From the NCBI GenBank assembly GCA_965372095.1, contig CBDVAW010000003.1, forward strand, positions 1 to 32,101: DNA of 32,101 nucleotides, in the 5' to 3' direction. The translations under genes were made by a program, and so were the position numbers. Below are positions 13,891 through 30,097 of this stretch, piece after piece (the stretch's first letter is position 1; the number at the start of each line of letters is the position of its first letter). This DNA comes from an uncultured bacterium (GTDB lineage: Bacteria; Patescibacteriota; Minisyncoccia; Minisyncoccales; CBDVAW01). The notes under the pieces are model-generated. The model was not told where the DNA came from, made no database searches, and saw only the letters and a list, made by a program, of their open reading frames with translations.

Positions 13891-13898
13891 ATAAAAAG

Positions 13899-14552
13899 GC
13901 TCAAGCAGACGATAAGCCGAATTTTGTCCCCAAATTTTGGGGGGTAATCATCTCTCTGTGCGATCTACTTTTTTCTTTACCGTCTTAACGGCAAAGATTT
14001 GATCTTGCACCAGGTAGGGTTTACCACATCAGAACGTTGCCGCCTGATGAGGGGAATTTTATTTCCCCACTTTTCACCTTAGCCTTCTCAACTTTTTAGC
14101 CTTTAGAGTGCGGGATTCAAACCAGAGTCAATTTAGCGGAAAGAATTTGGGCAAGGTTCAAGATGCGAGGAGCGTAATGTATCCATAGGACACATAAGCA
14201 ACGAGCAACAAAGAAGATTACCCGAATTCTTTCCGCCCGAAGGGAAGCGAAATAATGGGTCAATCCCTTCGTCACTTCTCCTCAAGGTATTAATCCTTAA
14301 TACCTTTTCGTCGTCGTTTCTTAAACTTAATCCATTATTTCATTCCTAAACTTGATTCTGGTTTGAATCCCACACTCTTTAGGGCTAAATTGATGCGATT
14401 GGCTGTTTAGTCTCTGTGACACTTTCCCTAGGATCACTCCCGGTCGCCGTTAGCGACTACCTACTTCCCGCCTTAATGACGGGGGTGTTCGGACTTTCCT
14501 CTACTATCCTCGCTTAAAGCAAGTATAGCAGCGATTACCTGTCTACTTGAGC
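13899..14552 (-). ncRNA. rnpB: RNase P RNA, 654 nt because of an insertion in P12
   Basis: P1 GCTCAAGTAGAC/GTCTGCTTGAGC, GAGGAAAGTCC, GGAAAGTGTCACAGA, GGTGAAA, GGTAAACCC..GTGCAA and ACAAAATTCGGCTTAT, all in the expected order. Confidence 0.96.
14106..14377. mobile_element. MITE-like palindromic element (272 bp) inside rnpB P12
   Basis: About 31-bp imperfect terminal inverted repeats (GAGTGYGGGATTCAAACCAGARTCAA...), TTTA on both flanks (14102-14105 and 14378-14381), no transposase ORF. Confidence 0.8.
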
Positions 14553-27566: not shown

Positions 27567-27980
27567 TTATTTCTTCCTAAATCTCGCCATCGGATCAATG
27601 CTAAAAAATTTTTTAATGCTCCGTGACCCTCTTATATATAAAGAATTTTTTCTTTTACAGTGTCTCTTAATACTTCTTTGAAGTTCATCTTTAGCCTCGT
27701 TAATAGCTAAATAAATATCATTTTTTATCGCTTCCGACCTTAAGCTGTTCCCAAAAAACTCTAACTGAACCTCCGCTCTGAAAATATCTCCTTTTCTGCT
27801 GCGACGCGATATTGTCCCCACTTCCACCCTGGCTTCTATAGAAGCTCTGCCTTTATCCGACAAATCACTTTCAATTTCTGTTCTTGTAATGAATCTTTCC
27901 AGGCTTCCAATTTTTTCTTCAACATATTCACGGATAGTCGGAGTTAATTCTAAATTAGTGGCCTTGATATTTATATTCAT
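27567..27980 (-). CDS. hpf: Ribosome hibernation promoting factor (HPF/RaiA)
   Basis: MNINIKATNLELTPTIREYVEEKI...DIYLAINEAKDELQR, upstream of secA as is usual. Confidence 0.92.
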   Translation of the reverse strand: MNINIKATNLELTPTIREYVEEKIGSLERFITRTEIESDLSDKGRASIEARVEVGTISRRSRKGDIFRAEVQLEFFGNSLRSEAIKNDIYLAINEAKDELQRSIKRHCKRKNSLYIRGSRSIKKFFSIDPMARFRKK

Positions 27981-28051
27981 TGATTTTTTTTAATGATACT
28001 TTATTTAAGAATAACAAATCAAGTTTAAAAAACAACCCTCGTTTTTGAGAC

Positions 28052-28115
28052 AAAAAAAGGATCCCCGCAGCTGACTCCGAAACAAAGTCTTAAGTGAGCG
28101 CTATCACGGGGATCC
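28052..28115 (-). ncRNA. Candidate small RNA 1 (about 64 nt)
   Basis: TGC-TACAAT (28130-28122) puts +1 at G28115. Closing stem GGATCCCCGT/GCGGGGATCC, inner hairpin GACTTTG/CGGAGTC, then T7. Confidence 0.6.
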
Positions 28116-28212
28116 ATTTATATTGTAGCAAATACTAAAAATAAGTAAACACTTTTATCTGCTAATCTACTTGAAGGCCAAATCTTTAAAAAGGTTCTAA
28201 AATAAATAAAGC

Positions 28213-28284
28213 AAAAGACCTTACTTTCGCAAGGTCTTCCGCCGACTTAGTATGGAGCCCCGATTGCTCGGGATCACACTCACT
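28213..28284 (-). ncRNA. Candidate small RNA 2 (about 72 nt)
   Basis: Consensus promoter, GCAA-capped hairpin TCCCGA/TCGGGG, and terminator AAGACCTTGC-GAAA-GTAAGGTCTT-TT. No ORF. Confidence 0.65.
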
Positions 28285-28290
28285 GTTACG

Positions 28291-28319
28291 ATAATAGCAA
28301 AATTAAACTATTTTGTCAA
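28291..28319 (-). promoter_or_regulatory. Promoter of candidate sRNA 2
   Basis: TTGACA (28319-28314), 17 nt, TGn-TATTAT (28296-28291). Confidence 0.75.
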
Positions 28320-28330
28320 CATCGGGCGCA

Positions 28331-28705
28331 TTATTTGCCTAAAAGCTCATTCATTTTGGCTCTGGTGGTAATTCCCACATACCCGGTTCCTTCTGTCAAT
28401 CCCCATGGATCCAATATCTCATCAGCATACTTTTCCTGGAAAGTTTTAACCGCGGCTTGAGTTTTAAAGCCGTAATATTCGGTTCCCGACCAAGACTGAT
28501 GATCCGGCACTTCCACGTCCAATATTGCCTTTAAATAAACAACATCTTTTAAATAAGCATTTGTCTTAAAATTAGTTCCAAAAGTAAAATCGCTCGGGAT
28601 TCCTTCATAAACCGGTTCTCCTATAATCTTGGCCAACTCTGATTTCAGAATAACTATTTGAGCTAATAAATCCACGATCTTGGCTTCCATTTCTTCTATG
28701 GTCAT
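28331..28705 (-). CDS. Peptidoglycan-binding-domain ORF, in frame with and probably the C-terminus of 28742..30097
   Basis: YYGFKTQAAVKTFQEKY...GTGYVGITTRAKMN pattern. Separated from the upstream ORF by one TAA plus 12 sense codons. Confidence 0.75.
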   Translation of the reverse strand: MTIEEMEAKIVDLLAQIVILKSELAKIIGEPVYEGIPSDFTFGTNFKTNAYLKDVVYLKAILDVEVPDHQSWSGTEYYGFKTQAAVKTFQEKYADEILDPWGLTEGTGYVGITTRAKMNELLGK

Positions 28706-28741: not shown

Positions 28742-30097
28742 TTATTGTTCTTCTTGTTCTTCGTTGTCTGAAACTTTAAATGTAACGGCTTCTAATATAA
28801 ATGGATGATCCGGCTCGGAATCGCCGAAATCATTTAATTCTCCGTTGACTGACGGGATAAGGACAAGAGACGAATAATTATTGCCAAAATCAACCACTTT
28901 GATAGTTCCCTGCTGGCTGCTATCTAAAGATAAAAAATTCAGGGAACAGGTATTGGACAAATCGCAAAGAAAATAAGGAATCTTAAAATCCTTTTCATCC
29001 ACTCCGTCAAATTGCAATTCTAAAGTTCCGCTACCTCCCATAAGCTTATACCAATTGCCCGACCAGTCCTTAACAGAGTCTTGAATTGTTAGCGTAGTTC
29101 TATCTGCAAACGGTAAAAAATTCAGAGAAGGGGAAATATGTAAATCTGCAAGATGTTCATTTAAATAACAATATTTGCCGCCTGAAGAGCAATCGTTAGA
29201 TAATACGGCGATTGTCCAATCAATGAATATCTGATAAAAATCTACCGTAAAACCGTTTTTTTGTAAGGCGCTATTAATGGAAGCAATACCTATTTCAGAC
29301 GAATGCAGAGCGTCAACTAAAATTTCTGTCCCATAATGATCAACCAAATATTGGATAAAAAGATTTAGAGCTCCATAATCATAGACTGATCCCTTCCATT
29401 CGGTAATGGAATCGCTCGGTTGTTTAAGAAAGTCGTTTACCCTATGCTCAAGGTTACTCCCCTTATAAACATCATCATATCCAACGGCAGTCGGAGCATA
29501 TTCGCTTAAAGCTTCATGAAACCATATATCCTCATTCAAACCATATTTCCTTTCTTTTTGATTGAAAGTTATCAGATGCTGAAATTCATGGGCTAAATAA
29601 CTTTTAAATAAAGGACTATCAATATGATGAGCATTAAGATAGATCATCTCTCTTTCGTTGGACGACGGCGCCTGGATTGTAGGATATTCATCATTGGTGC
29701 GTACATAGCCGGCGGCATTATTTGTCATTGGATGGATCAAGACAGTTATTCTTTCATCCATATCAATCCCCGGCTTCCATTCAAATCCAAAAAGAGAAGT
29801 CAATATGGGATAGATAGTTGTTTCAAACTCTTGTGACAGTTGATTTAAACTTGTTTTATATTCGTTTTGGCGAATAATACTAAGTGCATCCCACCAATTA
29901 TTATCAATATAGAAATACAATTTCTCGCTCATAATCCTAAGATTGGCGGTAACTTCATCTCTGTTCATAGCATCATATTCTTGAGCAACAAAAAAATCTG
30001 CCTGCTGGCCAATAGAATCAGCGCTGGAAATAAAAGGCAGACTTAATAATGTTATAACAAGAAATAAGAGAGTTTTTAGCTTATAATTCTTTCCCAT
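28742..30097 (-). CDS. Secreted zinc metalloprotease (HExxH, M30/immune-inhibitor-A-like), cut short by an in-frame TAA
   Basis: Signal peptide, LAHEFQHLI and WFHEALSE motifs. The stop falls inside a Glu-rich linker. Confidence 0.8.
   Translation of the reverse strand: MGKNYKLKTLLFLVITLLSLPFISSADSIGQQADFFVAQEYDAMNRDEVTANLRIMSEKLYFYIDNNWWDALSIIRQNEYKTSLNQLSQEFETTIYPILTSLFGFEWKPGIDMDERITVLIHPMTNNAAGYVRTNDEYPTIQAPSSNEREMIYLNAHHIDSPLFKSYLAHEFQHLITFNQKERKYGLNEDIWFHEALSEYAPTAVGYDDVYKGSNLEHRVNDFLKQPSDSITEWKGSVYDYGALNLFIQYLVDHYGTEILVDALHSSEIGIASINSALQKNGFTVDFYQIFIDWTIAVLSNDCSSGGKYCYLNEHLADLHISPSLNFLPFADRTTLTIQDSVKDWSGNWYKLMGGSGTLELQFDGVDEKDFKIPYFLCDLSNTCSLNFLSLDSSQQGTIKVVDFGNNYSSLVLIPSVNGELNDFGDSEPDHPFILEAVTFKVSDNEEQEEQ

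Follow-up and report, generated by a model that had tools for sequence, protein, structure and literature searches.

A pair of small RNA genes, designated here RNA1 and RNA2, is encoded on the minus strand of a 32,101-nt stretch (contig CBDVAW010000003.1, assembly GCA_965372095.1) from an uncultured bacterium of the order Minisyncoccales in the phylum Patescibacteriota; this whole stretch of DNA is referred to below as the window. RNA2 denotes the upstream unit and RNA1 the downstream unit. Comparative sequence analysis leaves little doubt that the two genes encode a real, dedicated, co-evolving and separately promoted RNA pair. With regard to function, the reading favoured here, to which we assign a probability of roughly 0.5, is that RNA1 and RNA2 form a co-evolved binding pair and a riboregulatory module at the head of an envelope-gene unit, a best guess that is based on the position of the pair in front of such a transcription unit.

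The first-pass annotation of this DNA had described two independent minus-strand units, each with an extended -10 promoter, a U-tailed end and no open reading frame (ORF); both units are confirmed, and neither has a conserved ORF. The RNA2 promoter starts 8 nt past the stop codon of the upstream ORF, and a second TG-extended promoter, that of RNA1, follows about 90 nt further on. The elements of the two units are located as follows.

28291..28319, minus strand: RNA2 promoter, TTGACA-17-TATTAT with TG, 11/12 matches (consensus scan)
28205..28284, minus strand: RNA2, about 72-80 nt, with helix A strand, variable hairpin, helix B strand, terminator hairpin and U-tail
28276..28284, minus strand: helix A strand of RNA2, AGUGAGUGU, at the predicted 5' end; partner 28093-28101
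28244..28259, minus strand: helix B strand of RNA2 (GGCUCC-AUA-CUAAGUC); partner RNA1 28073-28089
28210..28243, minus strand: RNA2 terminator hairpin, 15 bp with a GAAA loop, then a U-run (scan)
28122..28149, minus strand: RNA1 promoter, TTTACT-16-TACAAT with TG (consensus scan)
28052..28115, minus strand: RNA1, 64 nt, with stem S, a 37-nt interior holding both binding sites, and a U7 tail
28106..28115, minus strand: 5' strand of stem S, GGAUCCCCGU, pairing with 28059-28068
28093..28101, minus strand: helix A strand of RNA1, GCGCUCACU (column counts and paired alignment)
28073..28089, minus strand: helix B strand of RNA1 (GACUUUG-UUUC-GGAGUC; RNAduplex and paired alignment)
28059..28068, minus strand: 3' strand of stem S, GCGGGGAUCC, with the U7 at 28052-28058 directly after it

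The predicted 5' end of RNA2 is the A of AGUGAGUG, and that of RNA1 is the first G of stem S. In the window, the hairpin that follows AGUGAGUGU in RNA2 is GC-rich and is succeeded by the stretch GGCUCCAUACUAAGUC. Both RNAs fold more stably than shuffled sequences (z = -5.6 for RNA2 and z = -3.6 for RNA1). The sole ORF over the two units is a 30-aa frame at 28025..28117, whose ATG is not kept in relatives, where RNA1 opens with GGGUC or similar; neither RNA1 nor RNA2 thus contains the conserved short ORF that a type I toxin-antitoxin system would have in one of its partners.

Within the window, RNA2 AGUGAGUGU pairs with RNA1 GCGCUCACU over 9 bp including two G-U pairs, and RNA2 ACUAAGUC pairs with RNA1 GACUUUGU at seven of eight positions. 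Both contacts had been proposed at first pass and are as described there, and their complementarity proves to be conserved and covarying in about 100 genomes. A third contact, between RNA2 GGCUCC and RNA1 GGAGUC, had been missed; it extends the second and merges with it into one long helix, termed helix B, for which RNAduplex gives -14.9 kcal/mol with RNA1 28073-28089 in the window. In the duplex listings across pairs, helix B comprises 13-16 bp with a small bulge.

Homologs were collected from samples of related genomes. A BLAST search with the 291-nt region as query against 60 relatives belonging to other families of the order returned partial matches to both units in several relatives, and the loci read show the same tandem pair. 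Covariance models of RNA1 (R1, built from 8 sequences) and RNA2 (R2, built from 62 sequences) match the window at 28053-28115 with 74 bits and at 28202-28284 with 68.6 bits, respectively, and were used to search 151 genomes of the order, 124 of them of good quality. RNA1 was found in 103/151 genomes (89/124 of good quality) and RNA2 in 105/151. When the two genome tables were compared by eye, both RNAs were present in 100 genomes, RNA1 only in 3, RNA2 only in 5 and neither in 43; these and all other distribution figures describe samples, in which 'not found' does not mean 'absent'. Among the RNA1-only genomes, the match in G128 lies at a contig start, the atypical RNA2 of G124 was missed by the model, and no RNA2 was seen beside RNA1 in G028; four of the five RNA2-only cases are weak matches. 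RNA1 occurs in one copy per order genome with the exception of G136, the sole sampled genome with two RNA1 and two strong RNA2 matches (contigs C1 and C38, loci L138 and L141), where the doubled pair may reflect a duplication or a mixed bin. Among 145 genomes of the other orders of the class, RNA1 was detected in 49, in single copy apart from one genome with a second weak match, and RNA2, which was examined beside RNA1 in 16 fetched loci, adjoins it in 12. A search for RNA1 alone with a further model (R3) in a phylum sample of 147 genomes outside the order gave 0/147; RNA2 was not part of that search. Missing as it is from about 30% of the order, the pair appears to be accessory rather than essential, and an essential housekeeping RNA would be unlikely to be distributed so patchily.

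The two genes are closely linked. Among 86 order loci with both RNAs in one fetched stretch, RNA2 precedes RNA1 in tandem orientation in 71 (median spacer 32 nt), and the genes converge in 13 (median spacer 25 nt) and diverge in 2 (more than 1.1 kb apart); RNA1 and RNA2 usually stay together even when RNA1 alone inverts. In one family (G057, G114, G146), they lie 50 kb apart or on different contigs, from which it follows that they work in trans. The promoters are conserved as well. Upstream of RNA2, a -10 box of the form TAnnnT is found at a distance of 4-10 nt in 91/96 loci, a TG extension in 80/96, and a -35 element matching TTGACA at five of six positions or better in 86/96, while 1000 random positions scored by the same -10/TG/-35 criteria yielded 141, 7 and 8, respectively. 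RNA1 has a TAnnnT box 4-10 nt upstream in 97/97 loci and a TG extension in 54/97.

The evidence that carries the pairing is compensatory change between the two RNAs. For column-wise counts, the RNA2-to-RNA1 stretch was aligned with MAFFT for 41 of the 50 tandem loci with a spacer of at most 60 nt, plus the window; nine loci with a truncated or atypical RNA2 (L106, L124, L127, L128, L132, L133, L138, L140 and L143) were left out. In this paired alignment, helix A, formed by nucleotides 1-9 of RNA2 and RNA1 GCACUCACU, shows 97.9% pairing, and 6/9 of its pairs have changed on both sides; the CUAAGUC:GACUUAG part of helix B is 84.7% paired with 5/7 pairs changed; pairing falls to 35-49% in slid controls, in which the partner strand is shifted by 1-3 columns. 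The first position of helix A alone is AU in 60, UA in 9, GC in 4 and GU in 3 of 96 genomes by column counts. The CUCC segment of helix B is 50% paired on the MAFFT alignment; this RNA2 segment is misaligned there, and an alignment-free test was relied on for it. In this test, the RNAduplex energy of each RNA2 was calculated with its own RNA1 and with every other RNA1 for 104 unique pairs from the order and the class, after three truncated pairs and one duplicate had been dropped. Cognate partners are predicted to bind more strongly than non-cognate ones in helix A (-14.0 vs -11.9 kcal/mol), helix B (-15.5 vs -11.4 kcal/mol) and their sum (-29.5 vs -23.3 kcal/mol), and the cognate mean was reached by 0/5000 permutations in each of the three cases.

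These results bear on the simplest alternative, according to which there is no functional pair at all: one unit would simply terminate the gene upstream, the other would be an attenuator or terminator in front of hpf, and their complementarity would be due to chance. Such an account is highly improbable: both units do end in terminator-like hairpins, and 9-bp matches in short AT-rich sequences are not rare, but compensatory change extends over about 100 genomes from several orders at a level that permutation and slid controls never reached, both RNAs have promoters of their own, and their linkage survives inversion.

In several lineages, the pairing segments have been replaced wholesale with compensation, as in AACGAGCG:CGCUCGUU, CUACGUC:GACGUAG, CCAAGGUC:GACCUUGG and GCUCCGAUCUAGGUC:GACCUAGAUUCGGAGU. 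This behaviour also speaks to the possibility that RNA2 is a multi-target base-pairing small RNA and that RNA1 serves as a sponge or decoy titrating it from mRNAs. RNA2 is indeed built of seed regions and a Rho-independent terminator, both seeds would find a perfect binding site in RNA1, and the CUCC of RNA2 and the GGAG of RNA1 bear what we take to be a resemblance to anti-Shine-Dalgarno and Shine-Dalgarno sequences. However, multi-target seeds should be frozen, yet helices A and B are exchanged as a whole, and a genome-wide search for sites with at least 10 contiguous bases complementary to the first 44 nt of RNA2, a crude search in one genome, gave only scattered 10-11-mers and nothing longer; for RNA2 or RNA1 targets in general, the window genome showed nothing beyond chance 10-12-mers. 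Known enterobacterial sponges, as in the GcvB-SroC pair and the ChiX-chb spacer, arise as by-products from mRNAs or tRNA spacers, and their conservation is narrow. The present pair shares with them a small RNA that has another RNA as its dedicated pairing partner, whereas RNA1 and RNA2 are each encoded by a separate gene with a promoter of its own, and the two are inherited together and covary class-wide. A sponge function is accordingly rated as rather improbable.

The interface has been remodelled in a few lineages. RNA1 lacks the GACUUAG segment in L107, L113 and L114, which belong to one family (G020, G093, G135), and in L116 (G088). In the first three loci, RNA2 lacks CUAAGUC and the helix B strand extends over GGAGUUAACG up to stem S; in L116, RNA2 has UCUUUG in its place.

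Each RNA also has a conserved fold of its own. All 10 pairs of stem S change on both sides, 99.4% of cells are paired among 99 distinct sequences, and no shuffle reached these scores. Of the 13 pairs in the model stem of the RNA2 terminator, 12 show changes on both sides, with pairing in 97.8% of cells. The loop of this terminator in relatives (alignment columns about 77-86) is nearly always a 6-nt palindrome, mostly CUCGAG and more rarely CUUAAG, CUAUAG or of the UGCAG type, and the window has GCGAAAGU instead; the palindromic loop may form a C-G-closed tetraloop or a self-kissing loop. In addition, weak 4-bp internal helices, ACUC:GAGU in RNA1 and GAGU:ACUC in RNA2, can each mask part of a binding site. 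The inner helix of RNA1 is 99% paired, with UA replaced by CG nine times and no C-A mismatch, and the change of RNA1 CACUCAC to CACCCAC is coupled with that of GGAGU to GGGGU, both RNA2 segments changing along. These intramolecular alternatives average -5.3 and -4.7 kcal/mol, as against -14.0 and -15.5 kcal/mol for the intermolecular helices, but co-evolve slightly, the cognate level being reached in 34 and 11 of 5000 permutations. Since the inner helices covary, each RNA can mask part of its own site, which would fit a pathway of kissing followed by strand exchange. A further proposal made at first pass, that RNA2 AAGUCGGC mimics the partner strand within RNA1, does not hold up: the underlying RNA1 hairpin GACU:AGUC shows no covariation, its pairing of 86.5% comparing with 85.9% in shuffles and being matched by 108/500 of them.

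The order of the covarying helices supports the first-pass suggestion of a pseudoknot-like or strand-exchange arrangement and points to a defined topology. RNA1 is predicted to be a hairpin in which the 10-bp stem S closes an interior of about 37 nt, and RNA2 would consist of the 5'-terminal 9-nt segment A, a variable hairpin, an approximately 16-nt single-stranded segment B and the terminator hairpin. Segment A would bind the 5' half of the RNA1 interior and segment B its 3' half, giving about 24 intermolecular bp in all. The base of stem S is where RNA1 would receive both segments of RNA2, and the complex may therefore be drawn as a four-way junction whose arms are S, helix A, the hairpin of RNA2 and helix B; GAUAG and UYAAC of RNA1 would serve as junction linkers, and AAA would join the distal ends of the two intermolecular helices. 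One genome has no more than AAUAA in place of the RNA2 'hairpin', so that helices A and B would have to lie side by side. With helix A at its extreme 5' end, RNA2 could wind into the closed loop of RNA1; the exposed part of B would touch the apical loop of RNA1 first, and strand exchange would then form helix A and the rest of B.

Such a pathway recalls CopA-CopT of plasmid R1 and RNAI-RNAII, antisense/target hairpin pairs that end in a four-helix junction. The likeness lies in two hairpin RNAs, an exposed loop or strand that nucleates pairing, and a stem exchange that leads to a four-way junction, which is a prediction in the present case. Systems of the CopA-CopT type are cis-encoded, fully complementary, plasmid-borne copy-number controls, whereas RNA1 and RNA2 are separate chromosomal genes with partial complementarity of about 24 bp, swapped order and class-wide occurrence. 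The opposite strands and full complementarity that define cis-encoded antisense RNAs are not found here, the genes being tandem in 71/86 loci and their complementarity partial.

The genomic neighbourhood is the basis of the regulatory reading. Gene-context calls were made by tblastn over the RNA1 loci of the order (n=100). In 80 of them, murB lies directly downstream on the same strand; in 15, it lies divergently upstream, about 38 nt off, with a leaderless-type promoter in the one locus read (L043); and in 3, none of the three tested genes was found within the fetched stretch. In 16 loci from other orders, RNA1 is followed by a homolog of the window's large secreted protein in 6, by hpf in 3 and by murB in 1. 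A co-oriented gene thus follows RNA1 in 81/100 order loci and 10/16 elsewhere, with 15/100 inverted. Upstream of the pair, the genes encode a PG_binding_1 protein or a Wzy_C/TPR protein. In 76 order loci with a placeable start, the murB ATG mostly lies 6-25 nt past stem S; a -10 box placed for a leaderless murB mRNA was found in only 16/76, and a T-run of at least four follows S in about half of the loci. Given this short gap, the scarcity of -10 boxes and a T-run in only half of the cases, murB must in many genomes be transcribed through RNA1. A murB promoter hidden in the 3' end of RNA1, with UUAACU as its -35 element, was considered and rejected, only a few loci, L053 among them, fitting it and a suitable -10 box being present in 16/76. 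In the two pair-less genomes read out of 43 (G033 and G010), murB has a leaderless-type promoter or abuts the upstream gene.

On the regulatory reading, the RNA1 promoter would head the downstream unit, namely murB in most of the order, hpf in the window and other envelope genes elsewhere, and RNA1 would in many genomes be the physical 5' leader of the downstream mRNA. RNA2 would then set the fate of the RNA1-led transcript through termination at S, processing or translation, and an RNA1 with a good terminator, as in the window, would act as a free partner RNA. The short, promoter-less gap before murB and the covarying free-state helices do not contradict this guess. A known parallel is offered by pT181, pIP501 and pAMbeta1, in which an antisense RNA binds the nascent leader and brings about transcription attenuation. 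Here too, a small RNA would bind a nascent leader whose terminator-like final stem lies immediately ahead of the gene under control; in contrast to those plasmids, the U-tract is present in about half of the loci and RNA1 also occurs without a downstream gene.

Several observations weigh against regulation of a led transcript. RNA1 of the window ends in U7, and hpf has a promoter-like site of its own. RNA1 is intact in the 15/100 order loci in which it points away from murB with no gene downstream, and because the downstream gene varies, the conserved function cannot lie in cis control of one given gene. In compact genomes, close spacing and a common orientation would occur in any case. A conserved terminator/antiterminator alternative by which RNA2 could open or close stem S was not seen. 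CACUCAC and GGAGU are conserved in sequence beyond the needs of pairing, which hints at a further partner. Moreover, a sequencing-run search with the stretch returned three DNA runs with small word shares and no RNA run.

The inverted loci (15%), the terminator in the window and the varying downstream gene keep alive a different account, in which RNA1 and RNA2 are an obligate two-piece noncoding RNA (ncRNA): the heterodimer would itself be the functional molecule, such as a ribonucleoprotein scaffold, a protein titrator or a ribozyme, acting in trans and found in one class only, and neighbouring genes would merely share the promoter by read-through. Several features suit it. The predicted complex is far more stable than the free folds (-29.5 vs about -10 kcal/mol); both promoters are conserved, that of RNA2 being near-consensus; the two genes are gained, lost and moved together; RNA1 stays intact without a led gene, as the inverted loci and the window with its U7 terminator illustrate; the junction nucleotides GAUAG, AAA and UYAAC are conserved though unpaired; and the pairing segments covary freely, as if each had one partner. 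On the other hand, searches did not detect the pair in 43/151 order genomes, in roughly two thirds of the genomes from the other orders of the class or anywhere beyond the class, so it is not essential; apart from the envelope genes, no conserved protein gene accompanies it; and the covarying weak intramolecular helices suggest that the free states matter too. We regard a two-piece ncRNA as possible, although on the unlikely side. Functional bacterial RNAs made of two base-paired chains are known in two-piece transfer-messenger RNA (tmRNA) and in the duplex of CRISPR RNA with trans-activating CRISPR RNA (crRNA:tracrRNA), to which the present pair has that likeness. Two-piece tmRNA derives from one permuted gene with a tRNA-like end and a tag frame, and tracrRNA needs an array of clustered regularly interspaced short palindromic repeats (CRISPR) together with Cas9. 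No CRISPR array or Cas9 was seen in the flanks examined; ARAGORN finds no two-piece tmRNA here, and an ordinary tmRNA is present elsewhere in the genome.

Searches for known families agree with the first-pass statement that no such family is matched. At the Rfam 15 gathering score, the whole window contains only an RNase P RNA and three tRNAs, all elsewhere; relaxing the cut-off to E<=10 brings up only sub-threshold noise in the region 27900-28450, led by PyrR with 21.6 bits where 54 are required; and 20 related loci gave 0 matches at the gathering score. The RNase P RNA (window 13897-14550, minus strand) is of class A, scores 143 bits and is 654 nt long, with about 290 nt inserted as one block between model positions 136 and 137. 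ARAGORN detected no tRNA or tmRNA at the pair and no tmRNA in the window.

It could nevertheless be supposed that the pair is a diverged or split member of a known family, i.e., signal recognition particle (SRP) RNA, 6S, tmRNA, 5S or the raiA motif. In favour of this, SRP RNA (RF00169) was found neither in the window genome nor in 59/61 relatives, and no 6S is detectable. However, the SRP proteins are missing too: PF02978 and PF00448, which represent the M domain and the GTPase of SRP54 (Ffh), gave nothing above cut-off in the 99.6%-complete window genome, the top tblastn match to Escherichia coli Ffh had an E of 0.13, PF00448 occurs in 0/61 relatives and in 1/101 genomes sampled from the phylum, and FtsY is also absent from the window genome. 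SRP subunits are absent in many bacteria of the candidate phyla radiation according to PMC8080830, so that SRP absence is probably a known trait, and an SRP RNA identity was rejected in view of this and of the missing Ffh and FtsY. For 6S (RF00013), no match was obtained in the genome with a model that gave one in only 5/14 control genomes, and this identity was rejected since 6S requires an approximately 180-nt hairpin that opens into a large central bubble and the RNAs here measure 64 and about 75 nt. Replacement of tmRNA or 5S was likewise dismissed, a one-piece tmRNA (contig C18, 155.9 bits) and a 5S RNA being present elsewhere in the genome in normal form.

The raiA motif (PMC5737381) is reported as a single larger ncRNA of Firmicutes and Actinobacteria that is sometimes located upstream of raiA/hpf, and an ncRNA upstream of raiA does recall it. 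The differences are that cmscan gives no match, that two small RNAs are found here, and that hpf is the direct neighbour in 1/100 order loci. With no credible Rfam match, and with sizes and a topology that fit none of these families, membership in any of them is scarcely to be entertained. A description of the pair was not encountered in the literature consulted, the supplementary motif lists of PMC5737381 and PMC8632094 being places that may hold something beyond Rfam, and the RNA1-RNA2 module appears undescribed.

The neighbouring gene in the window had led the first-pass annotation to connect the pair with hpf and dormancy, and this connection falls away in a wider comparison, hpf lying directly downstream in 1/100 order loci (that of the window's genome) and 3/16 loci elsewhere, and murB in 80/100. 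The gene and its position are as follows.

27567..27980, minus strand: hpf/raiA (Ribosomal_S30AE), Pfam E = 2.2e-16, downstream neighbour

A consensus scan places a promoter-like site for hpf at 28022..27993, and hpf is not part of the RNA module. In one further order locus, hpf lies 370 nt downstream, and it comes after murB in at least some relatives. The murB gene of the window genome sits on contig C34 (L180, start at locus position 850), where it has TATAAT 4 nt before the ATG and no Shine-Dalgarno sequence and thus looks leaderless. The position of hpf next to the pair is a by-product of murB relocation in the window genome.

On the other side of the pair, an in-frame TAA at 28742-28744 (minus strand) falls in a poly-Glu linker between ORFs 28742..30097 and 28331..28705, which encode 451 and 124 aa in the same frame; relatives have one ORF of about 460-490 aa, whose unsplit product carries a C-terminal PG_binding_1 domain (L060). 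Tandem GC-rich hairpin repeats near promoters (of the ...CCGCCCCTAAGGGCTTCGGCG... type) were observed in L014 (G042), about 120 nt upstream of tuf, and in L008 upstream of RNA2.

Almost nothing is known about ncRNA in these uncultured bacteria, whose genomes are about 0.6 Mb in size. The pair described here is kept, moved and lost together across roughly 150 sampled genomes and provides a clean natural case of RNA-RNA co-evolution, in which intermolecular pairs carry covariation support of a kind usually seen only within a single RNA. The predicted loop-closed four-way-junction topology is testable. If the module did control murB, it would join the small number of regulatory devices known from this group and would act on the synthesis of cell-wall precursors; should the two RNAs instead be subunits of one functional RNA, they would represent a new architectural class for bacteria.

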